A stretch of DNA of 64,000 nt from NCBI GenBank assembly GCA_963757355.1, contig CAVWRG010000003.1, positions 261,120 through 325,119 of the forward strand. The letters run 5' to 3'. The notes beneath the pieces are model-generated. The model ran no database searches. It was not told where the DNA came from and saw only the letters and a list, made by a program, of their open reading frames with translations. The position numbers were made by a program, and so were the translations under genes. The stretch is from an uncultured Acidobacteriota bacterium. Lineage in GTDB: Bacteria; Acidobacteriota; Vicinamibacteria; Vicinamibacterales; CAVVIG01. This document shows, piece by piece, positions 1-16,052 of this stretch; within the stretch, counting starts at the first letter, position 1, and the number at the start of each line of letters is the position of its first letter.

Positions 1-1552
1 CGTTCGGACGCCCAGACGATTCGATCGACTGCTGCGCGTTGATCACGAAGTTGAGCGCCACCTGCTCGATCTCCGTGAAGTTGGCGTAGACCGCGCGGGC
101 GGAGGAGATCTCGACGTCGAGCGCAATCGACAGGTTGTCGAGATCGCGGCGCCGAAGCTGGATCACTTCGGTGATCACGTCGCGCAGATCGATGAACGAC
201 GGCGGCTCGGATTGCTGGCCGCTGAACCGCGACAGGTTGCGGATGATCTCGCGGGCCCGCCCGCTCTGCGTCTTGACGAATGCGATTTCGTCGCGCGCCT
301 GCGCCGACAGATCTTCCTGCCGCTCCAGCAGTTCCGCCGTGCCGAGAATCGCCTGCAGAGGATTGTTCAGCTCGTGCGCGACGCCGGACACGAGGACGCC
401 GACGGCCGCGAGGCGCTCCTGCCGCACGACCTGTCGCTGCAGCGACTGCAGCGTCTCGCGCATTTTGCGCTCCTGCTCGATCTGATGATCGAGCGCCGCG
501 TGCGTCTCGCGCAGGTTGGCGGCCATCGTGATGAAACCGTCCTGAAGCTGCTCGAGCTCGAGGTTCGGCACCGGGTTCCGGGCGGGGGGCGACAGATCGC
601 CATCGGCAATGCGCTGCACGGCGATGCGGAGGCGATTGAGATCCCGGCTGAGGATCGCCGAGAGCCAGAGCGACACCGTCAGCACCGCGAAGATGGCGAG
701 CCCGCTGATAATCAGGTTGCGTCGTTTGAGATTGGCGATGCTCGAGGCGGCGACGTCAATTGGGATGCCGACGCTCAACAGCCACGGGCCGCGTTCCACG
801 ATCGCATTGCCATAGAACCGCTCGACGCCGTCCGGGCCAACGAGCGTTTGCGACCGCGCGACATCACGCGGCTGCATGGGGTTCGCGCTCATCGCGGTGC
901 CGATGAAGCGCTCCGGATCCCGGCTGCGCGCCAGCACGCGGCTCGCACCGTCGGCCAACGTGATCACGGATCCCTCCGGGAGCGGCACGCTGCCGAACAC
1001 CGTCTGCAGCCGCGCGAGATTGATGCCGAGTCCCAGCACACCGGAGATGCCGCCGTCCGGCCCCCACACCGGGTACCCGAGCACGATCGTCGACTTGCCG
1101 GACACCTGGCCTTTGAAGAGCTCGCTCACGACCGGCTTCCCCGTGGTCACGACGTCGTGGACGTATGCACGCGTCAGCTGTCCGAGCTGTGGCGAAACGG
1201 GCAGCCCGGATCCCTTCAGGGACCCGTGTGTATCGGTGAGCAGAATATTCAGGATGAGCGGCTGGTCGTGGATGATGCGGGCAAACAGGCGGTCGCACCG
1301 TGCGCGGTCGAGGGCCATCACATCCGGATGTTGCTCGAGCACCGACGCCATCAAGTCGAGGCCGCTCAGGTATTGATTCAAGTAGGCGGCCGCCGTCGAG
1401 GCGATCGAGGCGGCTTGATCACGGACGTCGTTCGCACGCTCGAGCCGCGTCCGCTGCGAGGCCCACATCGCGGCGACCGCGAACGGCAGCAGGAGGACGC
1501 CGGTCGCGACGAGCACCTGGCGACGAATGGGCTGGCCGTTGAAGATTCGCAA
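1..1552 (-). CDS. sensor histidine kinase (partial; C-terminal part runs off the left edge)
   Basis: Not in the ORF track because there is no stop in the window. The reverse-strand frame from TTG at 1552 stays open to position 1. It shows an N-terminal TM (VLVATGVLLLPFAVAAMW), a sensor region of about 250 aa, a second TM, a HAMP-like linker and the H-box SGVAHELNNPLQAILGTAELL. GC3 is high. Confidence 0.8.
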   Translation of the reverse strand, partial: MRIFNGQPIRRQVLVATGVLLLPFAVAAMWASQRTRLERANDVRDQAASIASTAAAYLNQYLSGLDLMASVLEQHPDVMALDRARCDRLFARIIHDQPLILNILLTDTHGSLKGSGLPVSPQLGQLTRAYVHDVVTTGKPVVSELFKGQVSGKSTIVLGYPVWGPDGGISGVLGLGINLARLQTVFGSVPLPEGSVITLADGASRVLARSRDPERFIGTAMSANPMQPRDVARSQTLVGPDGVERFYGNAIVERGPWLLSVGIPIDVAASSIANLKRRNLIISGLAIFAVLTVSLWLSAILSRDLNRLRIAVQRIADGDLSPPARNPVPNLELEQLQDGFITMAANLRETHAALDHQIEQERKMRETLQSLQRQVVRQERLAAVGVLVSGVAHELNNPLQAILGTAELLERQEDLSAQARDEIAFVKTQSGRAREIIRNLSRFSGQQSEPPSFIDLRDVITEVIQLRRRDLDNLSIALDVEISSARAVYANFTEIEQVALNFVINAQQSIESSGRPN

Positions 1553-1570
1553 GGATCCAGTGATTTTAGC

Positions 1571-2242
1571 TTAGACCAGCGGGTCGGGCACGCCCGCTTC
1601 ACTGAATCCTTTCGCTCGCAGCAGACAGCTGTCGCAGCGCCCGCACGGGCGGCCGGACGGCAACGGATCGTAACAGCTATGGGTCAGCCCGTAATCGAGG
1701 CCCAAGTCGAGTCCGCGGCGAATGATCTCGGCCTTGCTGAGCGAAATGAGCGGCGTGTGGATGTGGAACCGCGCGCCTTCGATCCCCGCGCGCGTGGCCA
1801 CGGCCGCCAGCAATTCGAACGCACTGATGAACGCGGGGCGGCAGTCGGGATAGCCCGAATAGTCGAGCGCGTTGACGCCGATCACGATGTCGTGCGCGCC
1901 GAGCGTTTCCGCCCAGCCGAGGGCGAGCGACAGGAAGACGGTGTTCCGCGCCGGCACGTAGGTGGAGGGAATGCCGGCGTCCACGGCGGCCACATCGCGA
2001 TCGCGCGGCACCGCATCATCCGACGTCAACGACGAGCCGCCGATGCCGCGCAGGTCCACGGAGAGCTCGAGATGCCGCTCGACGTCGAGGGCCTGCGCGA
2101 CGGCGCGCGCAGCGTCGACCTCGCAGGCGTGGCGCTGGCCGTACTGCACGGTGAGCGCGTACAGCGAAAAGCGCTGCGCCTTGGCGATCGCTGCGGCGGT
2201 GTACGAGTCGAGACCGCCACTCAGGAGGACTACTGCACGCAT
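1571..2242 (-). CDS. queC: 7-cyano-7-deazaguanine synthase
   Basis: Has LLSGGLDS (PP-loop) and a C-terminal Cys cluster [17 protein letters not shown]; 223 aa. Confidence 0.95.
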
Positions 2243-2245
2243 TGA

Positions 2246-2365
2246 GTGAATTGGTAACTTGGTGAATTGGTAATTTTACGCACGACGCGGTCGCCGAATC
2301 CTTCTTCCATTCGCCTTATCCACTCACCAACTCACCAATTTACCAATTTACCAATTTACCAATTA
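2246..2365. repeat. inverted low-complexity word repeat (GGTGAATTGG / CCAATTTACC arms) between queE and queC
   Basis: The left arm (2246-2276, gtgaattggtaacttggtgaattggtaattt) is roughly complementary to the right arm (2320-2365, ccactcaccaactcaccaatttaccaatttaccaatttaccaatta). The right arm includes the queE stop codon. Confidence 0.8.
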
Positions 2366-3004
2366 CACGCCCCTGGTGGTGGGTGACCAAATGTATTTGT
2401 GCAGCTGCAACTGCACACGGACGGGAAGATGGTCCGCCAGCACCCATTCCGACAGCGATCGCGCATCGAGCACGCCGTGCACCGGGGACATCAGCACCTC
2501 GGCGGCGCGCGTCGCGAGATCGTGGCGCGCGATCACGTCGCGCGCGAACTCGTAGTCCGCACGATCCTGCACGACGAACTTCACTTCGTCGTGCGGCGCG
2601 AGGCGCGCGAGATTCGCCCACTCGTTCTTGTCCGCTTCCCCGCTGCCGGGACACTTGACGTCCACGATCTTCACGACACCCGCCGGCACGCGATCGATCG
2701 GCCGGTGACCGCCGGTCTCCAGCAGCACGGTTCGGCCGTCCTGCATCAGCCGGTCCATCAGCGCGTAAACATCCTCCTGCAGCAGCGGCTCGCCGCCGGT
2801 AATCTCGACGAGCGGACACTGATACTGTGCGACGGTGTCGACGATGTCGGCGACCGAGCGTTTGTGGCCTTCGTGGAAGGCATACGGCGTGTCGCACCAC
2901 GAGCAGCGCAGATCGCAGGCCGTCAGCCGCACGAACACACACGGCCGTCCGGCGCGGGTGGACTCTCCCTGGATCGAGTAGAAGATCTCGTTGACGGTCA
3001 GCAT
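2363..3004 (-). CDS. queE: 7-carboxy-7-deazaguanine synthase (radical SAM)
   Basis: N-terminus EIFYSIQGEST, CxxxCxxC-like radical SAM cluster (CDLRCSWCDTPYA); 213 aa. Confidence 0.95.
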   Translation of the reverse strand: MLTVNEIFYSIQGESTRAGRPCVFVRLTACDLRCSWCDTPYAFHEGHKRSVADIVDTVAQYQCPLVEITGGEPLLQEDVYALMDRLMQDGRTVLLETGGHRPIDRVPAGVVKIVDVKCPGSGEADKNEWANLARLAPHDEVKFVVQDRADYEFARDVIARHDLATRAAEVLMSPVHGVLDARSLSEWVLADHLPVRVQLQLHKYIWSPTTRGV

Positions 3005-3021
3005 CCGTCTTTCATTATCCT

Positions 3022-3360
3022 ATGGACATGGCGAAACCGACCTTCTACTGGAAACCCACTTGAACGACCTGCAAAAACGCCAGAAGTTATCTGGACACGG
3101 CGCACGTCGCAGTACACGAAGTCGACATCAACAAAGAGCCACCGTCGCGACAGTTTCTCGAGCAGCACATCGACGCGGATCACTTCCTCGACTACGTGAG
3201 CACGCGGAGTCCCGTCTTCAAGGAGCGCCCGCTGCCCCGGTCGAAGAAGGAAGCCATCGACCTCATGATGGAAAACGCAAACCTCATCAGGCGGCCGATC
3301 CTCATCCAGGGCTCAACCGTGATTTTCGGGTTCGATAAAGACGCGTACAGTGAGCTCTAA
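3022..3360 (+). CDS. ArsC/Spx/YffB-family thiol-redox protein with in-frame TGA (candidate selenocysteine) at 3061-3063
   Basis: My own translation gives MDMAKPTFYWKPT-[TGA]-TTCKNARSYLD...NANLIRRPILIQGSTVIFGFDKDAYSEL. The TGA falls exactly where this family has the first Cys of its CxxC motif (compare NCDTCKKARRWL in YffB or SCTSCRKAR in Spx). There is no other stop up to TAA at 3358-3360. The ORF track misses the gene. Confidence 0.6.
3078..3099 (+). promoter_or_regulatory. candidate bacterial SECIS-like hairpin downstream of the TGA
   Basis: Stem ccaga(3080-3084)/tctgg(3090-3094) with loop AGUUA containing G-U, plus 2 extra bp (3078-3079 with 3098-3099) across a 3-nt bulge. The loop starts 22 nt after the UGA. 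The stem is short, so the call is weak. Confidence 0.3.
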
Positions 3361-4399
3361 CCTGCGCATCGGCACGTCGGGTTGGAACTATCCGTCTGGC
3401 CGAGGGACGTGGAACGGCGTGTTCTATCCGCCGCCACGGCGGCGCCCGAAAGGATTCGACGAGCTCGCCTTCTACGCCGAGCACTTCGACACGGTCGAGA
3501 TCAACTCGACGTTCTACGGCCAGCCGCGCGCCGACGTCGCGCGGACGTGGGCCGAGCGCACGCCGCCCGCATTCGAATTCTCGGTGAAGCTCTATCAGAA
3601 GTTCACGCATCCCAAGATGTACTCGGAGCGCGTGGCGCGTACGCTGCCGCCGGACGCCCGCGGCGACGCGAGTCTGGTCGGCATGCTTGCGGCGCCGAAC
3701 TCGGCTGATCTCGACGAGTTTCGGCGCGGCATCGATCCACTGGCGTCGAGCGGCAAGCTGGGCGCGCTGCTCGCGCAGTTTCCGCCGAGTTTCAAGGATG
3801 CGCCGGCGTCGCGCGAATACCTCGCCGGCCTGCTGCGCGCGTTCGCCGGATACGCCGTGGCGGTGGAGCTCCGTCACCGCAGCTGGAGCGACGGCATCGG
3901 CAACACGTTGACGCTGCTGAACGAATTCGGTGCGGCCTGGGTGCAGATCGATGAGCCGAAATTCCAGTTCTCCATCCGCCAGAACCATCTGCCCAACGTG
4001 AAGGGCTTTTACTACATGCGGCTGCACGGCAGGAATGCCGCCGCGTGGTGGCGCCACGACAAGGCCGAAGACCGCTACGACTACCTCTATTCGGCCAGCG
4101 AGCTGAAGGAGTTTGCCGACACCGCGGATGCGGCGCGGCACCTGGTGAAGAAGACCTATCTCTAAAACACGAACAATCACTTCTCCGCGAAGTCGGTGGC
4201 GAACGCGGCGATGATCAAGCAGCAGCTCGGCGAGCCGGCGACCGGCGAGTACCCTCGGGAATTCGCCGAGCGCTACCCGGAAATCGCCTCCGCTCTCACG
4301 ATCGCGTCCGGCGCGGGGGCGTCCGCTATTCCCTCACGTACATCCTCCGGATCAGATCGCCTTTTTGAAGCTGCGCCGGCACATCCGCGCCGGAAATAA
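3350..4399 (+). pseudogene. DUF72 (UPF0759/YecE-like) gene interrupted by in-frame TAA at 4163-4165
   Basis: The track ORF 3350-4165 (GTSGWNYPSGRGTWNGVFYP..., DTVEINSTFYGQP) stops at TAA. The same frame continues as NTNNHFSAKSVANAAMIKQQLGEPATGEYPREFAERYPEIA, which matches the conserved DUF72 C-terminus (NNH..G.AV.NA..L). Track ORF 4196-4399 is in the same frame. Confidence 0.55.
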
Positions 4400-4856
4400 T
4401 CCGGCCGAACACCGCGTACCTGCCGTTCAAGTCGGGCCGATCCGCGAGCGTCACGTAGATCTGACTGTCGGCCGCAGCCGGGTTGCCCAGGTGTGCCATG
4501 CCGACGGCGCCCTTCGTGTGCGGATGTTTCTTCGACATCTCCGCCGCGCCGATGGGCGCGCCGCTCGACGCCGCCTCGCCCCGGCCCCACTCGCTTTCCT
4601 GGGCGAGATCGCGGGATCGAGGATCACCCCATTGCACGACGAACCCCGGCAGGGCGCGGTGGACACGCTGGCCATCGTAAAATCCGCGCTTCACCAGGGC
4701 CATGATGTGTGCGACGGTCTGTGGTGCGTCGGCGGGGTACATCTCGAACGCGAACGTGCCCTTCGTCGTATCGACCACCACGACGGGAGCGGCGTTCTGC
4801 GCCGGAGCGGCCGTCGCCGCGGCGATCGCGATCAGCAGCGCGCAGCCGAGCCTCAC
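4326..4856 (-). CDS. secreted cyclophilin-type peptidyl-prolyl cis-trans isomerase
   Basis: Signal peptide LGCALLIAIAAATAAPAQ; FYDGQRVHRALPGFVVQWGDP and YAVFGRII motifs. The GTG at 4856 overlaps the nth stop (GTGA); an alternative ATG lies at 4895. Confidence 0.85.
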   Translation of the reverse strand: MRLGCALLIAIAAATAAPAQNAAPVVVVDTTKGTFAFEMYPADAPQTVAHIMALVKRGFYDGQRVHRALPGFVVQWGDPRSRDLAQESEWGRGEAASSGAPIGAAEMSKKHPHTKGAVGMAHLGNPAAADSQIYVTLADRPDLNGRYAVFGRIISGADVPAQLQKGDLIRRMYVRE

Positions 4857-5524
4857 GACTTCCCTTCCTGCGTCACGCCGATGCGCGGACACCACTCACG
4901 GATCACGCACGCGCCGCACCGCGGGTAGACCGGACGGCAGACGTTCTGTCCCCAGGTGACGAGATACAGATTGATGTACGGCCACCAGCGATCCGCCGTC
5001 GCGGCGTACAACGCCTGCTCGGTCTCATCTGGCGATTTCGTGCGCACCCATCCCAGCCGGTTCGCGATGCGGTGCACGTGGGTATCGACGCAGATGTTCT
5101 TCAGGCTGCGGAACGACAGAATCAGCACGAGGTTTGCCGTCTTCCGGCCGACGCCCGGCAGCGTCAGCAGTTCCTGCATCGTGCCCGGCACGCGGCCCTT
5201 GAATCGGTCGACGAGGATCTTGCACGTCTGCTTCACGTGCCGGGCTTTGTGCCGGTAGAAGCTGACGGGATAAATCAGCTTCTCGATCTGCTTCACAGTC
5301 AGCTTCGCCATCGTCCGCGGCGTACGCGCGACGCGGAACAGCCGCGCGGAGGCCGCGGCGGTGACCGGGTCCCGCGTCTGCGCTGACAGCATCGTGGCGA
5401 TCAACACCTGGAAGGGATCTTCGGGACTCGCTTCGGAGATCTTCTCGACGGCCGGCAGATCGAGGTGATCGATCGCCAGCGCGAGGGCGCGCATGACCGG
5501 CTCGACATGACGGCTTCTCTTCAC
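4853..5524 (-). CDS. nth: endonuclease III
   Basis: HhH-GPD motif LPGVGRKTANLVL, VDTHVHR, and the C-terminal Fe-S cluster CRPVYPRCGACVIREWC. Confidence 0.92.
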   Translation of the reverse strand: MKRSRHVEPVMRALALAIDHLDLPAVEKISEASPEDPFQVLIATMLSAQTRDPVTAAASARLFRVARTPRTMAKLTVKQIEKLIYPVSFYRHKARHVKQTCKILVDRFKGRVPGTMQELLTLPGVGRKTANLVLILSFRSLKNICVDTHVHRIANRLGWVRTKSPDETEQALYAATADRWWPYINLYLVTWGQNVCRPVYPRCGACVIREWCPRIGVTQEGKS

Positions 5525-5543
5525 AACGGCAAGCCCGTGATCC

Positions 5544-5578
5544 GTGAATTGGTGAGTTGGTGAATGGGTGAGTTGGTG
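5544..5578. repeat. single-arm word repeat of the GGTGA(A/G)TTGG family
   Basis: Sequence gtgaattggtgagttggtgaatgggtgagttggtg, lying between the nth start and the dehydrogenase stop. The word matches the element at 2246-2365. Confidence 0.7.
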
Positions 5579-5588
5579 TTCCCAAATT

Positions 5589-6533
5589 TCATTCGGGAAC
5601 CGGTGTCAGTGGCGGACGGCCTGCGAGGACGGCGAGCACATTGTCGGCTGCGAGATCGGCCATCGCCGTGCGCGTTTCCGTGGTGCCGCTGGCGAGATGC
5701 GGCACGAGGAGCACGTTTTCGAGCGACAGCAGGTCCGGGTGAACCTCCGGCTCGTTCTCGTAGACATCGAGCGCCGCGCCTGCGATCAGATGGTGCTGCA
5801 GCGCCCACGCGAGCGCCCCTTCGTCCACGACCGGACCGCGTGCGGTGTTGATCAGATACGCGGAGCGCTTCATGCGCGAGAACGCCCGCTGGTCGATCAG
5901 GTGACGCGTCTCCGGCGTCAAGGGCACGTGCAGCGACACGACGTCGGACGTATTCAGCAGACGATCCAGCGACATCGCTTCCGCTCCTGGCAGATCCGAC
6001 TCCCGCCTCGACGTGTAGGCGACCCGCATGCCGAACGCGGGCGCCCGCGCCGCGACGGCGCGCGCGATACGGCCCAGGCCGACGATCCCCAGCTGCTTGC
6101 CCTTCAGCTCGGTGCCGAGCATGAAGTCGAGCGCCCAGCCTTTCCACTCGCCGCGCCGCAGCAGCCGTTCACCCTCGGACAACCGGCGCGTAATCGCCAG
6201 GATGAGCGACCAGGTGAAATCGGCCACCGACTCGGTGAGCACATCGGGCGTGTTGGTGACGACGATGCCGCGAGAGCGGGCATACGGGACGTCCACGTTG
6301 TTGAAGCCGACCGCGACGTTGGCGACGATCTTCAGCGACGGCGCCGCATCGATCACGCGTCGATCGATGCGATCCGTGAGCAGACACACGAGCGCGTCCT
6401 TGCCGTCGAGACGGGCGCACAATTCATCCGGCGGAATCGCCGCGTCCCCCGTATACAGGTCGACGTCGCCGATCGCCCGGAGCTTCGCCAGGACGGACGA
6501 TGGAAGTTTCCGGGTGATGAGAATGCTGGGCAT
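5589..6533 (-). CDS. D-isomer-specific 2-hydroxyacid dehydrogenase (glyoxylate/hydroxypyruvate reductase-like)
   Basis: NAD-binding LGIVGLGRIARAVA, catalytic region LINTARGPVVDE, and VLLVPHLASGT. Confidence 0.85.
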   Translation of the reverse strand: MPSILITRKLPSSVLAKLRAIGDVDLYTGDAAIPPDELCARLDGKDALVCLLTDRIDRRVIDAAPSLKIVANVAVGFNNVDVPYARSRGIVVTNTPDVLTESVADFTWSLILAITRRLSEGERLLRRGEWKGWALDFMLGTELKGKQLGIVGLGRIARAVAARAPAFGMRVAYTSRRESDLPGAEAMSLDRLLNTSDVVSLHVPLTPETRHLIDQRAFSRMKRSAYLINTARGPVVDEGALAWALQHHLIAGAALDVYENEPEVHPDLLSLENVLLVPHLASGTTETRTAMADLAADNVLAVLAGRPPLTPVPE

Positions 6534-6555
6534 GGTCGGAATGAGATCGGTCTAA

Positions 6556-6625
6556 CACAAAGGACACAATGGACACAAAGGAAACCTCTACTGGCTTTAC
6601 CTTGGTGTCCTTGGTGTCCTCTGTG
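6556..6625. repeat. hairpin of CAC(A/G)(A/G)AGG words after the BMC operon
   Basis: Arm cacaaaggacacaatggacacaaagg (6556-6581) pairs with ccttggtgtccttggtgtcctctgtg (6600-6625), with an 18-nt loop. Confidence 0.8.
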
Positions 6626-6662
6626 TTGAATCAGCGCGTCGTTCACCAGAAAGCGCGCGGCT

Positions 6663-6908
6663 TCAGTGTCCGTACGACTGGCAGAACCCGCAGTGGTTGC
6701 AGCGCACCGCCGGCTCGATCAAGCACGCACCGTCAGTGTCGCCGCCGGATGCCAGGGGAAGCAGCCCGTGGCTGGCGTGCAGCCGGCAGGCATCCTGTCC
6801 CGGCGAAGGCGCAGCCGCCGAGGCGGGCGACCCGGCCTGGCGGGCGATCGCGTCACGCACCATCGCGCGGAGCTCCTGCTCAGAGACTTCCATCGAATTC
6901 CACGTCAT
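6663..6908 (-). CDS. small Cys/His-rich protein with N-terminal encapsulation-peptide-like helix
   Basis: 81 aa (76 if it starts at ATG 6893). It has helix SEQELRAMVRDAIARQ, a Pro/Ala/Ser linker and a C-terminal C-x7-C-x2-C-x2-C (ACLIEPAVRCNHCGFCQSYGH). GC3 is high. It overlaps the 3' end of the preceding BMC-P gene. Confidence 0.6.
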   Translation of the reverse strand: MTWNSMEVSEQELRAMVRDAIARQAGSPASAAAPSPGQDACRLHASHGLLPLASGGDTDGACLIEPAVRCNHCGFCQSYGH

Positions 6909-7158
6909 CGATGATCCCGATGATCGCGGCGTCCACGGGCGCCGCTTTCCGGCCCAGCGCCTCTCCAGCCGCGCGACCCTCGAGGACGATCAGGACTTTT
7001 TCGTGCACGCCAGCGCCGACGCCGTCCACCGCGAGCAACGCCACACCGCGCGGCGTGTCGTCCATATTCAGCGGCTGCACCAGCAACAGCTTGGCGCCCT
7101 CGAACTTCTTGTGCTTCTGCGTCGCGACGACGGTCCCCACGACTCGGCCAATCTGCAT
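6880..7158 (-). CDS. BMC vertex pentamer protein (BMC-P, EutN/CcmL family), paralog 1
   Basis: MQIGRVVGTVVATQK...LLLVQP...AVDGVGAGVHEKVLIV...VDAAIIGIID; 92 aa. Confidence 0.9.
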   Translation of the reverse strand: MQIGRVVGTVVATQKHKKFEGAKLLLVQPLNMDDTPRGVALLAVDGVGAGVHEKVLIVLEGRAAGEALGRKAAPVDAAIIGIIDDVEFDGSL

Positions 7159-7265
7159 CTGGTTATCTGGTTATCTAGTGATCTGGTTATCTGGTTATCT
7201 GGTTATTTGGTTATCTGGTTTCAATGATTCAATAAATGACCATATAACCAGATAACGAGATGACC
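7159..7265. repeat. octamer (CTGGTTAT) tandem array forming a hairpin between two BMC-P genes
   Basis: About eight copies of ctggttat/ctagtgat lie at 7159-7220. A complementary arm accatataaccagataacgagatgacc lies at 7239-7265. Confidence 0.8.
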
Positions 7266-7269
7266 ACAT

Positions 7270-7542
7270 TTACGTGTCTGCGAGGTTCCAGTGATCGACG
7301 ATGCCGACGATGCCCGCGTCGACCGGCGGCTCGGCCGGGTAAAACGGAAAGCTCGCTTCCTTGCCGCGCACGAAGAAGACGTTCTCGCCAATGCCCGCGC
7401 CGACGGCGTCGACGGCGACGATCGGCCGTCCGGCCGGCTCGCCCGCGGGTGTGAGCGGCTGCACGACGAGCAGCTTGATGCCGGCAAGTTGCGCGTCTTT
7501 CTGCGTGGCGACGACGTCGCCAATCACACGGGCGAGGTGCAT
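7270..7542 (-). CDS. BMC vertex pentamer protein (BMC-P), paralog 2
   Basis: MHLARVIGDVVATQK...LLVVQP...AVDAVGAGIGENVFFV...VDAGIVGIVD. ATG at 7542 has GGAG 10 nt upstream. The track extension to 7620 would overlap paralog 3. Confidence 0.88.
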   Translation of the reverse strand: MHLARVIGDVVATQKDAQLAGIKLLVVQPLTPAGEPAGRPIVAVDAVGAGIGENVFFVRGKEASFPFYPAEPPVDAGIVGIVDHWNLADT

Positions 7543-7564
7543 GGGACGACGCTCCAAGGGGTCA

Positions 7565-7843
7565 TCAGCGCTTCTCTTCCTGGAGATCCACGGTGTCGAT
7601 GATGCCGACGACCGCGGCATCCACCGGACAATCCTTCAATCCGGACGCCATCCGCGCCGAGCTGCCGCTGACGATCAGCACCGTCTCGCCGACGCCGGCA
7701 TCGACGGTGTCGACGGCGACCAGATAATGGCCTTCCGGCGTGCCGCGCGGATCCATCGGCCGCGCAATGAGCAGCTTACTGCTGACGAGGCGCGGATCCT
7801 TCCTCGTCGCAACGATGGTTCCTACGATTTTCGCCAGCAGCAT
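7565..7843 (-). CDS. BMC vertex pentamer protein (BMC-P), paralog 3
   Basis: MLLAKIVGTIVATRK...LLIARP...AVDTVDAGVGETVLIV...VDAAVVGIID; 92 aa. Confidence 0.9.
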   Translation of the reverse strand: MLLAKIVGTIVATRKDPRLVSSKLLIARPMDPRGTPEGHYLVAVDTVDAGVGETVLIVSGSSARMASGLKDCPVDAAVVGIIDTVDLQEEKR

Positions 7844-7910
7844 TCAGATTTTTCGATTTTCGATTGCAGAGCTTCAATCGTCGCCCGTCCATCGAGCGGA
7901 GATTTCAGCG

Positions 7911-8204
7911 CTAGGCCTTCGACGTCGTCGCCTTGCCGATCGGGAGCGCGTCCTCGAGATTGGCGTGCGGGCGCGGAATCACATGGACCGAGACGAGCTC
8001 GCCGACCCGGCGCGCCGCCGCGGCGCCTGCGTCGGTGGCTGCCTTGACTGCCGCGACGTCGCCGCGAACGATCGCCGTGACGTAGCCCGCGCCGATCTTC
8101 TCCCAGCCGACGAGCGTGACCTTCGCGGCCTTCACCATGGCGTCGGCAGCCTCGATCATCGCGACCAGGCCCTTCGTTTCGATCATCCCGAGTGCCTCAC
8201 CCAT
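7911..8204 (-). CDS. BMC hexamer shell protein (BMC-H, PduA/EutM/CcmK-like)
   Basis: [26 protein letters not shown]...[17 protein letters not shown]...[16 protein letters not shown] lies 6 nt upstream of the ATG. Confidence 0.93.
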
Positions 8205-8293
8205 TACTGACTCCTTGAATATCGCTGATGGCTAATAGCTCATGGACGAGAGATCGAACGCCTTGGCCAGGAGCCGTCAGCCGCTTGGGCATC

Positions 8294-8330
8294 CCCGAGC
8301 CCGAGCCCGGAGCCCGAGCCCTGAGCCCTG
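8294..8330. repeat. tandem CCGAGC/CTGAGC word run between the aldolase and BMC-H genes
   Basis: Sequence cccgagcccgagcccggagcccgagccctgagccctg. I found no obvious complementary arm. Confidence 0.6.
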
Positions 8331-8331
8331 A

Positions 8332-9255
8332 CTATCGTAAGTACCGAATCGCGTCCTCGATGAGCGCGGAGAGCTCGCGGTATGTTAACCGAATTTCTCC
8401 CTCCGCCTCCGCCGAAGACCTCGGCGAGTCGCCGCCGCGCGTGAGCTCCAGCACGAGACGCTGGCCGCCGCCGGAGGGCGCGCGCACCACCTGGCACGTC
8501 GCATCCTCGCTCTCGCGTGGCGCCGGCGCGTCAGACGGACCCCGGCCGCCCGGCGCAGGCGACGGGCCAGCGCCCGGGCCTTCCGCGGGGTCGGCGCAAA
8601 TCGGCGCCGGTGCTTTGATGCCGTACGAGCCCCGCAGCCCCTGTAAACGCGTGACCTCCTCGCGCGAGAGGACGTTCTCGCGGCCAAGCGTGCGCGCCAC
8701 GAGACTGATCTTCGCGAAGTGCTCGATCGTCTCCATCTTGTAGTACGCGCCGAAGAGATCGCTGCCGACCGTCAGCGCGCCATGGTTGGCCAGCAGCATC
8801 CCGTCGTGCGCCTTGATGTATTTGCGGACCGCTTCGGGCAGCTCGTTGGTCGAGGGCGTGGCGTACTCGGCGATCGGCACGCTGCCGAGCGTCGTCAACA
8901 CCTCCGCCAGGACGGCGCGATCGAGTGGAATGCCAGCCACCGCGAAGCCGGTTGCGGTCGGCGGATGCGCGTGCACCACGGCGTTCACATCGGGCCGCTG
9001 CCGATACACTTCGAGGTGCATCAGGGTTTCCGATGATGGATCGCGGTCGCCCTGCAGCTTGCGCCCCTCGAGGTCCGTGATGCACATCATGTCGGGGGTC
9101 ATGAACCCCTTGCACACGCTCTTCGGCGTCATCAGAAGGCGGGCCGCGTCGAGCCGCACGCTGATGTTGCCGTCGTTCGACGCGGTGTACCCGCGCGCGT
9201 ACATTCGGCGGCCGACTTCGACGATGTCGGCGCGGAGCGAGGACTCAGTGCTCAT
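8332..9255 (-). CDS. class II aldolase/adducin-family enzyme with long C-terminal extension ending in an encapsulation-peptide-like helix
   Basis: Core motifs NDGNISVR, SSETLMHLEVY, VVHAHPPTATGF and LLANHGALTVG. A Pro/Gly/Ala-rich tail of about 95 aa follows, ending in the amphipathic helix LTYRELSALIEDAIRYLR. Confidence 0.9.
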   Translation of the reverse strand: MSTESSLRADIVEVGRRMYARGYTASNDGNISVRLDAARLLMTPKSVCKGFMTPDMMCITDLEGRKLQGDRDPSSETLMHLEVYRQRPDVNAVVHAHPPTATGFAVAGIPLDRAVLAEVLTTLGSVPIAEYATPSTNELPEAVRKYIKAHDGMLLANHGALTVGSDLFGAYYKMETIEHFAKISLVARTLGRENVLSREEVTRLQGLRGSYGIKAPAPICADPAEGPGAGPSPAPGGRGPSDAPAPRESEDATCQVVRAPSGGGQRLVLELTRGGDSPRSSAEAEGEIRLTYRELSALIEDAIRYLR

Positions 9256-9554
9256 GCGGTTCGCCCTTCGACAGGCTCAGGGCGGCCTGAGCCCGCCGAA
9301 GGCCGAGCCCGGTATTTGTCGCGGCACGTCGTCGAGCAGAAGAACAACTGCTGGCGTCCGACGGTGACCGAAATCGCGCGTTCAGGCAACACGAACGTGC
9401 CGCAGACAGGGTCGCGCACCATGGGGACCGCGCGCGTAGGACGCACTGGCATCCGGGGCCTGCCGGTGATCCCTTCGATGATTCCGTCGACGACGCGCCA
9501 GAATGCGCGCGCGATGAAGATGAAAAGGATCAGCAGGAGGATGAGACGGAGCAT
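9252..9554 (-). CDS. small membrane-anchored YHS/TRASH-like Cys-motif protein
   Basis: The internal ATG at 9554 gives MLRLILLLILFIFIARAFW (TM), then DPVCGTFV...LFFCSTTCRDKY. The start overlaps the TPR stop (TGATG) and the stop overlaps the aldolase start (ATGA). The rest of track ORF 9252-9890 is out-of-frame overlap with the TPR gene. Confidence 0.7.
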   Translation of the reverse strand: MLRLILLLILFIFIARAFWRVVDGIIEGITGRPRMPVRPTRAVPMVRDPVCGTFVLPERAISVTVGRQQLFFCSTTCRDKYRARPSAGSGRPEPVEGRTA

Positions 9555-10186
9555 CAGGCACCTGGCTTCTGTCCTTCTCCGGAGCCCATGCCTGGGTGAG
9601 CGGACCGCAAGCTCTCGAGCGCGCGCTTGGCCGCCTGTCCCTCGGGACCGTTGGGATCGACCTCGAGAACCCGTTGCCACGCCTGCGTCGCGCCTTCGAG
9701 GTCCTGCTTGCCGAAGGCCTTCACGATCCCTTCGTTGAGCAGCGTTTTCGCGTGCTTCGGATCCAGCTTCAGCGAATGCTCGAACTGCGCGAGCGCCTTG
9801 TCGGGCTGATTCGTGTAGTAGTACGCCACGCCGAGATCGGTGCTCACGTTGACATCGTTCGGGCTGAGCCGCACGGCGTCCGAGTACCACTTGATCGCAT
9901 CGTCGTACCGTTCGGCGTCGAAGTAGAGGTTCGCCAGCTCGACGCGCGGCTTGGCGTTGGTCGGCTCGCGCTCGGCCACCGAGGTGAGGGCTTTCACCTG
10001 CGCATCGTCGAGAACGGCGGCGCGCGTGGTGGTGGAGCCGCTGGCGGCAGGAGCTGATGCGGCTGTCGCCTGCGTCGGCGCCGGGGCGGACGGACGAATG
10101 GCCGCCTGCTGGTTGCCGATGATCCAGCCGGCGATCAAGCCGAACACGACGCCGGCAACGCCGAATGCGATGGCATCAGACTTCAT
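9554..10186 (-). CDS. membrane-anchored TPR-repeat protein
   Basis: N-terminal TM AFGVAGVVFGLIAGWII, an Ala/Ser/Thr linker, then TPR-like repeats (LANLYFDAERYDDAIKWYSDAVRLSPND...). Confidence 0.8.
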   Translation of the reverse strand: MKSDAIAFGVAGVVFGLIAGWIIGNQQAAIRPSAPAPTQATAASAPAASGSTTTRAAVLDDAQVKALTSVAEREPTNAKPRVELANLYFDAERYDDAIKWYSDAVRLSPNDVNVSTDLGVAYYYTNQPDKALAQFEHSLKLDPKHAKTLLNEGIVKAFGKQDLEGATQAWQRVLEVDPNGPEGQAAKRALESLRSAHPGMGSGEGQKPGA

Positions 10187-10204
10187 GGGGACTCAAAACC
10201 GCTT

Positions 10205-10281
10205 CACCACGGAGGACACGGAGGACGCGGAGGAACATTCAATCAGGTTTGCCCTCCGTGTCCTTCGTGTCCTCTGTGGTG
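10205..10281. repeat. hairpin of CACGGAGG words
   Basis: Arm caccacggaggacacggaggacgcggagg (10205-10233) pairs with ccctccgtgtccttcgtgtcctctgtggtgg (10251-10281). Confidence 0.85.
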
Positions 10282-10294
10282 GCGCGTTTATCGA

Positions 10295-11023
10295 TCATAG
10301 CAGTGTGCGGAGAAACCAGTCCACCAACACGCGGACGAGATCCGGATCGTGGTTGAACATGTTCGTGCCGTGCCCGGCGTCGTCGAGCGTCTTGATTTCG
10401 CGCGTGCCGCCCCCGAGTGCGGCCAGCGCCTTGGCGGACCGCAGCGCATATGCGTCGTTCGAGCCGGCAACCAGCAGAGCGGGCCGCGCGCCGTACTTCC
10501 GCATCGCCGCTTCAACGCGCAGCGAGCGATACTCCAGAGTCGCCGACAAGAGCGCAAGGCTCTTGATTGACGGATCCGCAGCGGCAGCGATGATCGCGAT
10601 GTTCGCGCCGATCGACGCGCCGGCGATCCCAATCAGCGTCGTCTGGACCAGATCGGGGCGTGACGCGAGAAACGCGCGCGACGCTTTCACATCCAGGGCC
10701 AGCCGTGCCCAGTCGGGTTCGCCACCGGACGCCTGGGCGGGCGACGAGCCGCCGTGCCCGCGAAAATCGATGGCGAGCGCGTGGACACCCGCGTCAGCCA
10801 GTCGGGTCGCCACAGTCTGCCAATCGTCGCGGGACCGCGTGAGCATGTGCAGCAGAATCACCGCAGGCGCCGGACGCCGCGTGCCTTCGTAGAGCGTCGC
10901 GGCGATCGTCACGCCGTCGTCGGTGCGAAACGTGACGGTTCGAGCGGTAGCCGCTTCGGCCGCAATCGGGGAACACAACACAATGATCGCCAACAGCGCA
11001 ACCGCCAGGCGCCCAACGTTCAC
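10295..11023 (-). CDS. secreted alpha/beta hydrolase
   Basis: Signal peptide; HG-like oxyanion region ILLHML, nucleophile elbow GASIG, C-terminal DDAGHG. Confidence 0.8.
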   Translation of the reverse strand: MNVGRLAVALLAIIVLCSPIAAEAATARTVTFRTDDGVTIAATLYEGTRRPAPAVILLHMLTRSRDDWQTVATRLADAGVHALAIDFRGHGGSSPAQASGGEPDWARLALDVKASRAFLASRPDLVQTTLIGIAGASIGANIAIIAAAADPSIKSLALLSATLEYRSLRVEAAMRKYGARPALLVAGSNDAYALRSAKALAALGGGTREIKTLDDAGHGTNMFNHDPDLVRVLVDWFLRTLL

Positions 11024-11784
11024 GTGGGATTCCCGGACGCCGACGCCAGCACCTGAAGGTATTCGCCGATCACCGTGCGGAGGCCGACAAACAGCGCACG
11101 TGAGATGATGGCGTGGCCGATCGACACCTCGTCCAGGTGCGGCACGTTGCGGAAGAGCACGAGGTTATCCAGATCGAGATCGTGCCCCGCGTTGAGGCCG
11201 AGGCCGTGCGCATGCGCCGCCTGCGCCGACTGAATGTACACGTCGAGCGAGCGCCGCACTTCGTCGCTGTCGGCGCCGTGCTCGGTAAAGGCGCGTGCGA
11301 ACGGCTCGGTGTACAGCTCGACGCGGTCGGCGCCGATCGACGCCGCCCACGCGATGCGGTCGGGCACCGCGTCCACGAAGAGGCTGACGCGGATGCCGCG
11401 CGACCGCAGATCCTTGATGACATCGCCCAACCGATCGGTGGTCGGCCCTGGCTGCCATCCGGCCTGGCTGGTGATCTCCCCGGGCATGACCGGAACCAGC
11501 GTGCACTGATCAGGGCGCACAGCGTGCACCAGATCGAGCAGCTCGGGGCGCGGATCGCCTTCGATGTTGTACTCAACGTGCGGGCGGACGCCGCCCAGCA
11601 GAGCGCCGACCTCGCGGACGTCGTCCGGCGTGATGTGGCGCCGATCCGCACGCGGATGGACGGTGATGCCCGGTGCGCCGGCGTCGAGGCAGACCTTCAC
11701 GGCGTCGAGCACGCTCGGCGAGGTCCCGCCGCGCGCGTTGCGCAGTGTCGCGACTTTGTTGACGTTGACGGACAGGCGAACCAT
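11020..11784 (-). CDS. pdxJ: pyridoxine 5'-phosphate synthase
   Basis: LSVNVNKVATLRNARG, ITVHPRADRRHI, NIEG, HAHGLGLNAGHDL. Confidence 0.93.
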   Translation of the reverse strand: MVRLSVNVNKVATLRNARGGTSPSVLDAVKVCLDAGAPGITVHPRADRRHITPDDVREVGALLGGVRPHVEYNIEGDPRPELLDLVHAVRPDQCTLVPVMPGEITSQAGWQPGPTTDRLGDVIKDLRSRGIRVSLFVDAVPDRIAWAASIGADRVELYTEPFARAFTEHGADSDEVRRSLDVYIQSAQAAHAHGLGLNAGHDLDLDNLVLFRNVPHLDEVSIGHAIISRALFVGLRTVIGEYLQVLASASGNPT

Positions 11785-11798
11785 TCAGACGCTCGGAG

Positions 11799-11965
11799 GT
11801 GCTGGGATGCTAGGTGCTAAGTGCTAGGGTGCTGGGTGCTCTAGGTGCTCGGTGCTGGGTGCCACGTGCCGAGTGCCACTGGCTACATGCTGAGCTATGG
11901 CTCCGAATTGTTCCTGGCCGAATTCTGATTCTTGTCGCAGCACTCTCAGCACTCCAGCACCTCGG
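11799..11965. repeat. long GTGCT(A/G)GG word array with a short complementary arm
   Basis: About ten gtgctggg/gtgctagg-like units lie at 11799-11879. The complementary arm gcagcactctcagcactccagcacctcgg lies at 11938-11965, ending 2 nt before the glmM stop. Confidence 0.8.
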
Positions 11966-11967
11966 AT

Positions 11968-13329
11968 CTACCCGAGATGTTCTTTCACCACGTCCACAAT
12001 CTCCTGCGCCCAGGCGCGGATCTCCTGCTCGTTCTGGCCTTCGAGCATCACGCGCAGGAGCGGCTCCGTGCCGGAGTAGCGCACGAGCAGGCGGCCCTGT
12101 CCGTCGACGCGCGCCTCGACGCGCGCGATCGCGGCCGCGACGGCCGGCACCGTCTTCAAGTCGGTCTTCTCTCGCACGCGGACATTGAGCAGCACCTGGG
12201 GATACGTCGTGAGATCGGCGGCCAGGTCGGCGAGCGATCGGCGGCTCAGGACGATCGTCCGCAAGACGTTGAGCGCAGTACAAAGCCCGTCGCCGGTGAA
12301 CAGATACTCGGAAAAGATGATGTGCCCCGATTGCTCGCCGCCGAGCGAGAGGTCGCGCGCGAGCATCTCTTCCATGACGTACTTGTCGCCCACCGCGCAG
12401 CGCACGAGGTCGATCGCGGTACGACGCAGCGCGATCTCGAGCCCGATGTTGCTCATCACCGTGGCGACGATCGCGCCGCCGCGCAGCCGCGCCTCGCGCT
12501 GCAGCTGCACGCCGCACATCAGCAGCACGGCGTCGCCGTCCACGATGCGGCCGCGCTCGTCGACGAAAATGGCGCGGTCGCCGTCGCCGTCGAACGCTAC
12601 CCCCATCCGGCAGCCGCGCTCGACGACCGTGCGTGCGAGCCGCTCCGGATGCGTCGATCCGCATCCCAGGTTGATGTTGCGTCCATCGGGCTCGTTGCCG
12701 ATGACGATCGCATCGAAGCCGAGGCTGCGGAACAAGGCGGGCGCGACGGTCGTCGTCGCGCCGTTTGCGCAGTCGATGGCGAGCGGGAAACCGACGAGCG
12801 CGGACGACTCGGGAAAAACCGCGCGCAGATGATCGAGATACGCGCCGACGAGATCGGCCTCCAGAACGGGCCCGGCCTCGCCCGGCGTCGCGCGCCAGGC
12901 GGAGTCGGCGACGACGGCTTCCACCTCGCGCTCGACGCGCTCGGTGAATTTCTCACCGCGCCCGGAAAACACTTTGATCCCGTTGTCCTCGAACGGATTG
13001 TGCGACGCGGAGATCACGACGCCCGCATCGTAGCCCAGCTTGCGCGTGAGGTACGCCACCGCCGGCGTGGGGACGACGCCCGCGCTCGTCACAGAGGCTC
13101 CTTCGCCTGTGGCGCCGTGGGCGAGTTCGCGTTCGATCCACGGACCCGACTCACGCGTGTCGCGCCCGACCAGCAAGCGCGGCGATTCAGCGGCGCCGTG
13201 CGGCAGCGCGCGCACGAGCGCGGCGCCGAGACGGCGCACGGTCGCCGGGTCGAGCGGCGCGCGGCCGGCGACGCCGCGGACGCCATCAGTGCCGAATAGC
13301 CGGGGGATTGTCGCTTCAGTTTCTGACAC
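11968..13329 (-). CDS. glmM: phosphoglucosamine mutase
   Basis: LFGTDGVRGVAG, active-site SASHNPFEDNGIK, GDGDRAIFVDE. GTG at 13329 is the probable start; the track ATG at 13398 lies inside cdaR. Confidence 0.93.
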   Translation of the reverse strand: MSETEATIPRLFGTDGVRGVAGRAPLDPATVRRLGAALVRALPHGAAESPRLLVGRDTRESGPWIERELAHGATGEGASVTSAGVVPTPAVAYLTRKLGYDAGVVISASHNPFEDNGIKVFSGRGEKFTERVEREVEAVVADSAWRATPGEAGPVLEADLVGAYLDHLRAVFPESSALVGFPLAIDCANGATTTVAPALFRSLGFDAIVIGNEPDGRNINLGCGSTHPERLARTVVERGCRMGVAFDGDGDRAIFVDERGRIVDGDAVLLMCGVQLQREARLRGGAIVATVMSNIGLEIALRRTAIDLVRCAVGDKYVMEEMLARDLSLGGEQSGHIIFSEYLFTGDGLCTALNVLRTIVLSRRSLADLAADLTTYPQVLLNVRVREKTDLKTVPAVAAAIARVEARVDGQGRLLVRYSGTEPLLRVMLEGQNEQEIRAWAQEIVDVVKEHLG

Positions 13330-14245
13330 GTGAGATTCGCACCTGCACCACCGACGGATCCGTCCCCGTGACGCCCGCGTCTCGCGCGCCGCCGGCATGC
13401 ACGGTCAGCGTGTATTGACCGGCGCCGAGACGAGCGAGATCCACATACGCCGAGACATCGTCGGCCTCGACGCGGCTCAGCGCCGCCCGGCTCCCGCGCA
13501 GCCGCACGTCGACCACGGGAGGCACCGCTTCCGCCGACAGCCCGGCGGTCACATTGCGCAAGTGCACGGGACGCTCACGGATGACCCGCTCTTCCGGCCC
13601 TGGCAGGACATCCACCAGGACATTCGCGGAGCGCGGCAGTTTCAGCCGCACGGCGGGGTCCAGAAACCCAACCGTAACATTTTCGCGGACAGGCGCGCTC
13701 GCCCCGTCCAGGGAGATGGGCTCTGTAATGGCCTCGCTCACGCGCCCGACTGCGCTCGCCGGGCCGATCATCTCGACCGTGGGCGGGTCCGCGGTGATCT
13801 TCCCAATCACGTAGCCGGGTGCCGGCTCTCCCTCGATATCCGGCGTGACCGGCACCTGGCGCGAGGCTTCTGGTTCGAACACCATCGCCACAGACGGCGG
13901 CGTGATCTGCACCACCTCGACGCCGAACGGCGCGCGCACTTGTTCGGGCGTCAGGTGAAACAGCCGCCGGCCGGCGCGCGCGCCGCGCAAGTCGAGCACC
14001 GCGACAATGTCGCCCGGCGAGACGCGGCTCAGCGCACCTGACGCACCGCGGACGCGGACGTCCACGGTCGACGGCGCGTCGTCGTGCAGCTCGAGCCCCG
14101 GGGGAAACTGCTGGAGCTCGAGCGGCACGCGCAGACCGCGCTCGACGGTTTCTTCACCCGAGACCACCATCCACAGCATCAGCGCGAGGCCGAGGGAGAG
14201 GACCTTCAAGCCGAAATGACGGAACGGCCAGATGCGGCGCATCAC
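13316..14245 (-). CDS. cdaR: YbbR-domain protein (CdaA regulator CdaR)
   Basis: N-terminal TM followed by repeated YbbR-like beta modules (VPLELQQFPPGLEL..., VDVRVRG...). It sits in the conserved position between cdaA and glmM. Confidence 0.8.
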   Translation of the reverse strand: MMRRIWPFRHFGLKVLSLGLALMLWMVVSGEETVERGLRVPLELQQFPPGLELHDDAPSTVDVRVRGASGALSRVSPGDIVAVLDLRGARAGRRLFHLTPEQVRAPFGVEVVQITPPSVAMVFEPEASRQVPVTPDIEGEPAPGYVIGKITADPPTVEMIGPASAVGRVSEAITEPISLDGASAPVRENVTVGFLDPAVRLKLPRSANVLVDVLPGPEERVIRERPVHLRNVTAGLSAEAVPPVVDVRLRGSRAALSRVEADDVSAYVDLARLGAGQYTLTVHAGGARDAGVTGTDPSVVQVRISRVRN

Positions 14246-15057
14246 GTGTACTGCACCCGCGCATCACGCCTTGGCGCGCGGCCGCGGCGATTGAGCATCA
14301 ACATGCGCAGCCGCGCCCGCAGCGCGTCCGCGTCGAGTCCGCGCTCAATCTGCCCGTCGTTCACCAGCGACACGCTCCCCGATTCCTCGGACACGACGAT
14401 GGCGACCGCATCGTTTTCTTCCGTCAAGCCAATCGCCGCGCGATGGCGCGATCCGAGCTCCTTACCGAGCTTCGGGTTGACCGTGAGCGGCAGGAAGCAG
14501 GCGGCTGCCGCCACGCGATCGTCCTGCACGATCACCGCGCCGTCGTGCAGCGGAGACGTGGTTTGAAAGACGCTCAGCAGGAGATCGTATGTCAACACGG
14601 CATCGAGCGGGATGCCCCCTTCGATGTAGTTGCGCAGACCGATCTGCCGCTCGATCGCGATAATGGCGCCGACGTGCTGAGCGGAGAGCATCGTCGCCGC
14701 GACAACCAGCTCTTCGATCGTCTCCTCAGCCGACTCCGGTTTGGCGAAGTACCGGAAGAACGGCGCACGGCCCAGATGCGCGAGCGCGCGGCGGATGTCA
14801 GACTGAAACAACACGATCACCGCGAACACGATGTAGCCGACCATGTTGCGGATCAGCCAGTTCACGGTGTCGAGGTGGCCCCATCGCGATCCGTAGAAGA
14901 GGGCCACGATCACGCCGCCGCCGAGAGCCATCTGCACGGCGCGCGTGCCTCGAATCAGCTTGAGGACCTCGTAAATCAGCACCGACACCACGAGGATGTC
15001 GACGAGATCCCACCAGCCGATCGGCGGACGACGAAGGAACGCGGTGATCCAACTCAT
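14242..15057 (-). CDS. cdaA: diadenylate cyclase
   Basis: Three N-terminal TMs, DisA_N motifs DGAVIV and LGSRHRAAIGLTE, then AIVVSEESGSVSL. Confidence 0.92.
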   Translation of the reverse strand: MSWITAFLRRPPIGWWDLVDILVVSVLIYEVLKLIRGTRAVQMALGGGVIVALFYGSRWGHLDTVNWLIRNMVGYIVFAVIVLFQSDIRRALAHLGRAPFFRYFAKPESAEETIEELVVAATMLSAQHVGAIIAIERQIGLRNYIEGGIPLDAVLTYDLLLSVFQTTSPLHDGAVIVQDDRVAAAACFLPLTVNPKLGKELGSRHRAAIGLTEENDAVAIVVSEESGSVSLVNDGQIERGLDADALRARLRMLMLNRRGRAPRRDARVQYT

Positions 15058-15062
15058 ATCAA

Positions 15063-15112
15063 GGCAGAGGGCAGAGGGTCATATCAGGGCAAGCCCTCTG
15101 CCTCCTGCCCTG
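15063..15112. repeat. GGCAGAGG word hairpin spanning the folP stop codon
   Basis: Arm ggcagagggcagaggg (15063-15078) pairs with gccctctgcctcctgccctg (15093-15112). The folP TGA is at 15084-15086 in the loop. Confidence 0.8.
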
Positions 15113-15983: not shown

Positions 15984-16052
15984 AATTAAGAATTAGGAAT
16001 TCAGAACACGACAAGCATTCTCAATTTCCTAATTCCCAATTGTAAATTGCCC
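15967..16052. repeat. AT-rich AATT(A/C)(G/A)GAATT word hairpin between ftsH and folP
   Basis: Arm ggggaatttacaattcacaattaagaattaggaattcag pairs with attctcaatttcctaattcccaattgtaaattgccc. The left arm covers the annotated folP start. Confidence 0.8.

Follow-up and report, generated by a model that had tools for sequence, protein, structure and literature searches.

A small cysteine-rich protein with a putative encapsulation peptide is a conserved, previously catalogued component of the ACI-type microcompartment locus of Acidobacteriota

Bacterial microcompartments (BMCs) of the ACI type have been described from 125 loci, all of them in Acidobacteria (Sutter, Melnicki, Schulz, Woyke & Kerfeld 2021, Nat Commun 12:3809). 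According to Supplementary Data 2 of that survey, the parts of such a locus include a pfam00596 aldolase with a C-terminal encapsulation peptide (EP), a hydroxyacid dehydrogenase (pfam00389/02826), a triplet of BMC-P proteins and a BMC-H protein (Sutter et al. 2021). The same authors list three ACI proteins without known homologues, one of them about 80 amino acids long that bears an EP at its N-terminus together with three C-terminal cysteines that are conserved and another with three conserved histidines, and they remark that the binding of metal could be of importance in ACI. They further describe an ACI satellite locus encoding an aldehyde dehydrogenase in which an uncharacterised domain of about 50 amino acids comes after a near-C-terminal EP, and they mention PduS/PduT for satellite loci (Sutter et al. 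2021). Here we analyse a small gene of an ACI locus in a 64,000-nucleotide stretch of DNA (hereafter the window) from an uncultured Acidobacteriota bacterium of the order Vicinamibacterales (GTDB CAVVIG01; assembly GCA_963757355.1, contig CAVWRG010000003.1, positions 261,120 to 325,119 of the forward strand). The gene occupies positions 6663-6893 of the window on the minus strand and encodes a protein of 76 amino acids (MEVSEQELR...CQSYGH, followed by the stop codon), as judged from the list of open reading frames (ORFs), the N-termini of orthologues and codon-position entropy.

The locus reproduces the published composition. It encodes a PF00596 aldolase with a C-terminal EP, three adjacent PF03319 genes and one PF00936 gene (6880-8204) and a dehydrogenase at 5589-6533, and its host range is confined to Acidobacteria. 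The small protein fits the description of the catalogued EP-bearing cysteine protein of about 80 residues: it has 76 residues, and four invariant cysteines lie within the last 20, as against three in the publication. Locus composition and host are thus the same as for the catalogued ACI proteins, and the difference is that we find four cysteines conserved at about 100% and three histidines conserved at 90% or more where three cysteines were reported. The published sentence is ambiguous and cannot be assigned with certainty, since it may mean either the small protein or a TRASH/YHS-like protein of the same locus. In an alignment of representatives clustered at 50% identity, C57, C68 and C71 are the only strictly invariant cysteines of the small protein, which could explain the published count. 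Whichever protein that sentence means, the small gene is one of the three catalogued ACI proteins. The feature and the idea of metal binding are therefore already known, and our finding repeats a published annotation; to Sutter et al. (2021) we add the motif in exact form with its degree of conservation, the link to BMC-P by coupling, a synteny that is strict, the lack of a match to any fold or family, and a set of negative tests.

The TRASH/YHS-like protein is itself of about 85-100 residues, is encoded at 9252-9560 (minus strand) in the window, stands immediately upstream of the aldolase in 71 loci, and carries a very hydrophobic N-terminal helix. Its conserved block, RDPVCGTFV...FCS..CRDKYRAR, contains exactly three conserved cysteines (C-x21-C-x3-C) and gives a weak match to the Pfam YHS family. 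We regard it as a candidate for a second metal-binding protein of the locus.

The small protein is built of three parts, all encoded on the minus strand. An N-terminal helix resembling an EP (SEQELRAMVRDAIARQA, residues 4-20, positions 6834-6884) is followed by a variable linker rich in Pro, Ala, Ser and Gly (residues 21-38, 6780-6833), with unconserved alignment columns and variable length, and by a conserved C-terminal domain (residues 39-76, 6666-6779). The last of these ends in the motif C57-x7-C65-x2-C68-x2-C71-x4-H76 (CLIEPAVRCNHCGFCQSYGH, 6666-6725) at the extreme C-terminus. Across the alignments, the helix core reads [DE]-L-R-x-[LM]-[VI]-R-x-[AS]-[IV]-A-R, with L8, R9, R13, A17 and R18 kept, and the C-terminal block reads H-x-S-H ... 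D-G-x-C57-[LIV]-I-E-P-x-V-x-C65-x-H67-C68-G-[YF]-C71-x-S-x-G-H76, ending at the last residue. Among 340 non-redundant sequences all four cysteines are conserved at about 100%, accompanied by E60 (99%), P61 (98%), H67 (94%), G69 (96%), G75 (100%) and H76 (96%); H39, H67 and H76 each reach at least 90%. The initial annotation, made from the DNA letters and a list of their ORFs, had described this same order of helix, linker and C-x7-C-x2-C-x2-C-x4-H, which is correct and has invariant cysteines; its further element CRLHASH stood less well, as the cysteine of that stretch is not conserved among orthologues and H42 is conserved only in part (H.SH in 81%). Protein length is 68-83 residues in the 82 loci that we compared and rises to about 130 in repeat-expanded variants. 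In some homologues from metagenomes (P0019, P0137, P0153, P0247) the linker carries tandem repeats such as (SADLQVGGVR)n or (DPGVNT)n, expansions that are consistent with its being a tolerant tether, and in one of these homologues the C-terminal domain is apparently duplicated.

On these features we favour, with some confidence, the reading that the small protein is an EP-tethered, four-cysteine metal-binding accessory protein of the ACI microcompartment that is produced together with the third pentamer. Because the four invariant cysteines are surrounded by conserved Gly, Pro, Glu and His residues, a single predicted metal centre is the most economical interpretation of the block. A C-x2-C-G-[YF] turn is the classical knuckle of rubredoxins and zinc proteins, and CxxCxxC with a remote fourth cysteine is also a mode of [4Fe-4S] ligation; as far as sequence can tell, structural zinc and a redox-active centre of Fe or Fe-S appear about equally likely. 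In our working model, (i) the N-terminal helix (residues 4-20) would bring the small protein to the core of the cargo or to the shell's inner face; (ii) the linker, of 18-60 residues, would act as a flexible tether; (iii) the last 35 residues or so would fold round one metal centre held by C57, C65, C68 and C71, with H67 and the terminal Gly-His nearby; and (iv) the outcome would be a tethered, metal-bearing knot in the shell lumen, which with Fe or Fe-S could be a small redox or sensor module and with Zn a folded docking knob linking cargo and shell.

The four cysteines might instead act without metal, as a redox switch whose reversible disulfides gate assembly or enzyme binding in the manner of CP12 or of the cysteine pairs of CcmM and CsoS2. 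The protein is indeed small, largely disordered and has its conserved cysteines near the C-terminus, and redox-sensitive organiser proteins have precedent in carboxysomes. However, a CxxCxxC with a conserved Gly and with His, Glu and Pro close by is typical of metal sites rather than of disulfide pairs, and the published specialist reading prefers metal binding, so that we hold such a switch to be distinctly unlikely.

The gene itself is beyond reasonable doubt. The full open frame (6663-6908, minus strand) comprises 81 codons, and its second ATG, at 6893, yields the 76-residue form, which is identical to one database protein (P0001). The N-termini of orthologues, M-x-[VI]-S-[DE]-x-ELR or MT[DE]QELR, match this start, and for that reason we favour it. 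The in-frame upstream extension MTWNS (6894-6908, minus strand), which most orthologues do not have, is probably untranslated, and translation of an 81-residue form from 6908 seems unlikely; the MTWNS stretch doubles as coding sequence for the conserved C-terminus of the third BMC-P gene. The initial annotation had given these coordinates, both forms and an overlap of 14-29 nt with the BMC-P gene, all correctly, and its remark on a high G+C content at third codon positions agrees with values of 0.72, 0.58 and 0.84 at positions 1, 2 and 3.

GC-rich DNA yields many spurious ORFs, no RNA run was found to contain the stretch, and the frame might be a chance product or an overprint of the BMC-P 3' end. 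Against this stand hundreds of orthologues in which amino acids are kept while synonymous sites vary, and an overlap with the neighbouring gene of just 14 nt; the idea is refuted by conservation, and we assign it next to no probability. A word-indexed search returned 777 homologues of 42-142 amino acids. When one genome was scanned for each species, 252 species genomes proved to carry a relative, and HMMER, run exhaustively on 1.84 billion representatives, gave 269 clusters at 50% identity. Conservation of the frame and of its cysteine pattern in related genomes, on which the initial annotation had made its reading depend, is therefore extensive. In 82 loci, third codon positions have an entropy of 1.1-1.4 compared with 0.2-0.6 at first and second positions, in the helix and in the 24 C-terminal codons alike, and since third positions vary about three times more than the other two, the small gene is real and under purifying selection.

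Comparison of 82 fetched loci, in which the proteins of the window were located by tblastn, revealed a single gene order in 82/82: a TPR protein, the YHS/TRASH-like membrane protein, the aldolase, BMC-H, the three BMC-P genes, the small gene, the dehydrogenase where present, Nth and cyclophilin. The small gene immediately follows the third BMC-P gene in all 82, and even its most divergent members, at about 40% identity, occupy the same position; the co-occurrence with BMC-P triplets that the initial annotation had suggested examining is thus universal in this set. No homologue lay outside an ACI-type locus among the matches, which have the same architecture and context throughout. Fusions to an enzyme were absent among members of the family, the few long entries being miscalled starts, one BMC-P frameshift fusion and linker expansions.

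In the window, the third BMC-P gene ends 14 nt inside the small gene (6880-6893, minus strand). Of 81 loci, 66 have an overlap of 1-14 nt between this start and the BMC-P stop and the other 15 a short gap; the overlap points to translational coupling, with both proteins presumably made from one message. The coupling also speaks for a rival view of the small protein as a zinc-stabilised adaptor or organiser rather than a redox centre, in which a structural zinc knot docks on a partner while the helix coalesces with other EPs, giving a bivalent link between shell and cargo of the kind that CcmN and CsoS2 provide in carboxysomes. Several other features favour that view: the extreme C-terminus is invariant, as expected of a docking end (G75 at 100%, the last residue being H, Y or F), the tether is flexible and of variable length, the sole database similarity is to a structural-zinc lobe, and the locus encodes no redox partner. 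Three partners come into question: the pentamer translated along with it, the satellite aldehyde dehydrogenase through its C-terminal tail, and the EP-less 2-hydroxyacid dehydrogenase. For the last of these it may count that its Pfam domains cover residues 4-312 of 314, so that it has no terminal extension. Each of the three is still only a candidate, however, and each meets an objection: the small gene is kept in 11 loci without an adjacent dehydrogenase, no long protein with a related domain supports the link to the aldehyde dehydrogenase tail, and conserved Cys or His residues that would match are absent from the pentamers. We therefore consider the zinc adaptor a possible but less probable reading than the metal-binding accessory protein in its general form.

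Of 79 loci, 68 have the dehydrogenase after the small gene and 11 lack it (L006, L009, L010, L011, L018, L020, L025, L035, L047, L063 and L068; it is also missing from L087/L088); there the small gene is intact, as is the remainder of the operon. Kinship with the domain of about 50 residues that follows the EP of the ACI aldehyde dehydrogenase was examined and found no support: the best 150 of 269 HMMER matches comprised small proteins only, and a length-shifted word search recovered no protein of 275-875 residues with the C-terminal domain. A close relationship between the small protein and that tail accordingly appears unlikely from these comparisons. No aldehyde dehydrogenase is encoded in the 64-kb window, and a regex scan of the 16-kb loci found none of the BMC type, its one match being an ordinary enzyme.

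That the helix is an EP of the aldolase-tail type is suggested by a motif that it shares with that tail. Over six frames of the 64-kb window, the pattern EL.A[LM][IV].[DE]A[IV] occurs exactly twice, at the N-terminus of the small protein and at the C-terminus of the aldolase, so the pattern that the initial annotation had seen in common between the two is found nowhere else in the window. The aldolase tail reads EIRLTYRELSALIEDAIRYLR and follows a long linker beyond the end of the Pfam domain (residue 184 of 307); its EP, EIRLTYRELSALIEDAIR, which the aldolase family models do not cover, is conserved in 75 loci. In the small protein, L8, M11, V12, A15 and I16 form the hydrophobic face of the helix, at i, i+3, i+4, i+7 and i+8. 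Known EPs include the N-termini of PduP, PduD and EutC and the C-termini of CcmN and of aldolases. Terminal position, helicity and a flexible linker are named as hallmarks of EPs in the introduction of PMC8217296. Like known metabolosome EPs, the putative one of the small protein is a terminal helix of about 17 residues with a hydrophobic face, followed by a poorly conserved flexible linker; the gene stands inside a BMC operon, and the motif is common to another cargo of the locus. Unlike them, it would carry a cargo of only about 35 residues that is no enzyme. Targeting to the microcompartment is a well-founded inference from these features and from the predicted structure.

A short protein with an invariant C-terminal core might also be a precursor, made on ribosomes, from which a modified peptide or cofactor arises, its cysteine-rich end being the substrate of a maturase, and a radical-SAM gene does lie a few kilobases away. 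That gene is part of a queE-queC pair (PF04055 and PF06508) in conserved housekeeping synteny, the locus encodes no maturase, protease or exporter, and the N-terminal helix matches a BMC targeting peptide rather than a leader, which together make a precursor peptide highly improbable.

Structure prediction, which the initial annotation had recommended, gave a confident N-terminal helix and a low-confidence linker. Two AlphaFold2 runs placed the helix at residues 5-20 or 5-21 with a predicted local distance difference test score (pLDDT) of 84-92, and the linker had a pLDDT of 56-64. With a diverse alignment of 50%-identity representatives, mean pLDDT was 76.8, the helix reached about 90 and residues 41-76 had values of 73-87; in the model a beta-bridge joins residues 56 and 64, and residues 71-73 form a turn. 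The statement of the initial annotation that no family could be recognised was borne out by searches of Pfam, NCBIfam and PDB sequences and by Foldseek, all without a match: scans of the small protein and of 119 family members against these family collections produced only weak hits to DUF4630, UL49 and Fer4 that we regard as noise. Nor did a literature search find any paper on the motif C-x7-C-x2-C-x2-C.

Several known types of metal site were compared with the C-terminal block and set aside. A 4Fe-4S ferredoxin domain does not fit: the spacing is C-x7-C-x2-C-x2-C in place of the ferredoxin CxxCxxCxxxCP, no CP follows, and Fer4 matches were confined to 2 of 119 members at E of about 0.5. Descent from the Fe-S loop of endonuclease III/MutY (C-x6-C-x2-C-x5-C) received a probability of 2% over 8 columns when the C-terminal alignments were compared by hhalign; the Nth gene on account of which this was examined lies one or two genes downstream of the small gene. 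The structural-zinc lobe of medium-chain dehydrogenases was likewise rejected, the match covering 14 residues at E = 0.38, with the spacings in reverse order and no Pfam match to ADH_N. For a rubredoxin or zinc ribbon, the protein has a single knuckle-like C-x2-C-G-[YF], no separate second knuckle and no Pfam or Foldseek match.

A number of these results weigh against the metal-binding accessory protein that we favour. No known metal-binding family matches the small protein: Fer4_2 and Fer4_4 matches appeared in just 2 of 119 members (E ~0.5), Foldseek found 0 matches in the PDB with the AlphaFold2 model, and the sole PDB sequence match, on the structural-zinc lobe of a medium-chain alcohol dehydrogenase, is non-significant at E = 0.38. 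When AlphaFold2 was given close homologues only, the C-terminal part fell below a pLDDT of 60 and the helix alone was confident. The hydrophobic moment of that helix is 0.62 (0.70 for the aldolase EP), a value reached by about 20% of shuffled sequences (p ~0.2). A few divergent members have Tyr or Phe in place of H76, which makes the terminal His unlikely as an obligatory metal ligand. The locus encodes no flavoprotein or obvious redox partner, and our literature search found no experimental work on the small protein or on ACI microcompartments. The lack of an electron partner in the locus counts in particular against a simple electron relay, weakening that proposal of the initial annotation, and leaves room for a structural zinc knot that would dock onto a partner. 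The observation made in the initial annotation is confirmed, then, and its interpretation is partly supported: metal binding, an Fe-S identity, an electron-relay or sensor function and encapsulation of the small protein are all what we infer from the sequence.

Comparison with better-known systems places the protein among several partial analogues. PduS, the pore cluster of PduT and the C-terminal extension of PduK are likewise BMC-associated metal centres with cysteine ligands, thought to move electrons or sense redox state; the small protein has no sequence or domain kinship with them and is neither a shell protein nor a flavoprotein. Its segment IEPaVrCnHCGyC locally resembles IEPGVPCGHCRYC of the structural-zinc lobe of medium-chain alcohol dehydrogenases (C-x2-C-x2-C-x7-C, PDB 5vm2), with four cysteines in each, whereas the spacings are 2, 2, 7 in the lobe and 7, 2, 2 in the small protein, the position of the Gly differs, and the small protein has no dehydrogenase domain. 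In possible working mode it may be compared to CcmN, CsoS2 and CP12, small or disordered proteins that tether cargo to shells or enzymes through short terminal peptides, some of them with conserved cysteines; the analogy covers no more than that mode, as there is no sequence similarity.

The remaining genes of the operon are also on the minus strand. Reading in the direction of transcription, the class II aldolase (8332-9255; PF00596 at residues 10-184 of 307) has a linker of about 95 residues and its C-terminal EP at 8335-8397, and is followed by the BMC-H shell hexamer gene (7911-8204; PF00936, E = 1.5e-30) and by three BMC-P (EutN/CcmL) genes matching PF03319, at 7565-7843 (E = 2.1e-31), 7270-7542 (E = 1.7e-28) and 6880-7158 (E = 1.5e-29). 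The longest ORF of the middle BMC-P gene, 7270-7620, encodes 116 residues with the Pfam domain beginning at residue 27; its real start is probably the ATG at 7542 (MHLARV...), which would leave a spacer of 22 nt after the first BMC-P gene. The initial annotation had the small gene closing the BMC operon, which does not hold: the next gene, 129 nt downstream on the same strand, encodes the 2-hydroxyacid dehydrogenase (5589-6533; PF02826/PF00389) that Sutter et al. (2021) list for ACI. A strong hairpin occupies the spacer at 6555-6626 (minus strand; RNA fold of 6530-6670), with a folding energy of -54.4 kcal/mol (z = -5.2; 0 of 200 shuffles fold as well) and no U tract. It is long, near-perfect and made of repeated words of the GGACAC/GTGTCC type, and it may be a palindromic repeat element common in this genome rather than a terminator.

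On one side the BMC operon is flanked by ftsH, folP, cdaA, ybbR, glmM, pdxJ and a hydrolase gene (window ~1-16000; L001, L085-L088) and on the other by nth, cyclophilin, DUF72, an ArsC-like gene, queE and queC. This housekeeping neighbourhood persists even where small proteins are only about 40% identical, and it speaks for vertical inheritance rather than for a mobile island. The 80 genome loci are titled Acidobacteriota, Vicinamibacteria or Vicinamibacterales; five metagenome-assembled genomes are labelled otherwise, as Acidimicrobiia, Bifidobacterium, Bifidobacteriaceae or Betaproteobacteria (L031, L033, L042, L063, L081), have the same Vicinamibacteria-type synteny and are probably mis-binned or mislabelled. 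One of them, L081, resembles an inverted-duplication assembly artefact.

In summary, the value of this analysis lies in a sharper description of a catalogued protein and in testable predictions; it is not a discovery. A bolder version of the accessory role, in which the protein would be a new minimal metal-knot domain of about 35 residues on an EP tether, stoichiometric with the third pentamer and linking the cargo core to BMC-P, strikes us as doubtful. If it held, the linker role would provide the first functional reason for the BMC-P triplets of ACI, HO and FRAG-type microcompartments, and with Fe or Fe-S no smaller dedicated redox module would be known from the interior of a metabolosome. 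Vicinamibacteria and related Acidobacteria, the hosts of ACI microcompartments, are among the most abundant soil bacteria, and this 76-residue protein is among the few locus-specific components of their organelle and is small enough for direct biochemistry. Whether it binds Fe-S or Zn, and what it contacts, would show which of two things the organelle requires, a redox or metal module in its interior or a linker dedicated to joining shell and cargo, and its role might explain why ACI shells retain three pentamer paralogues.

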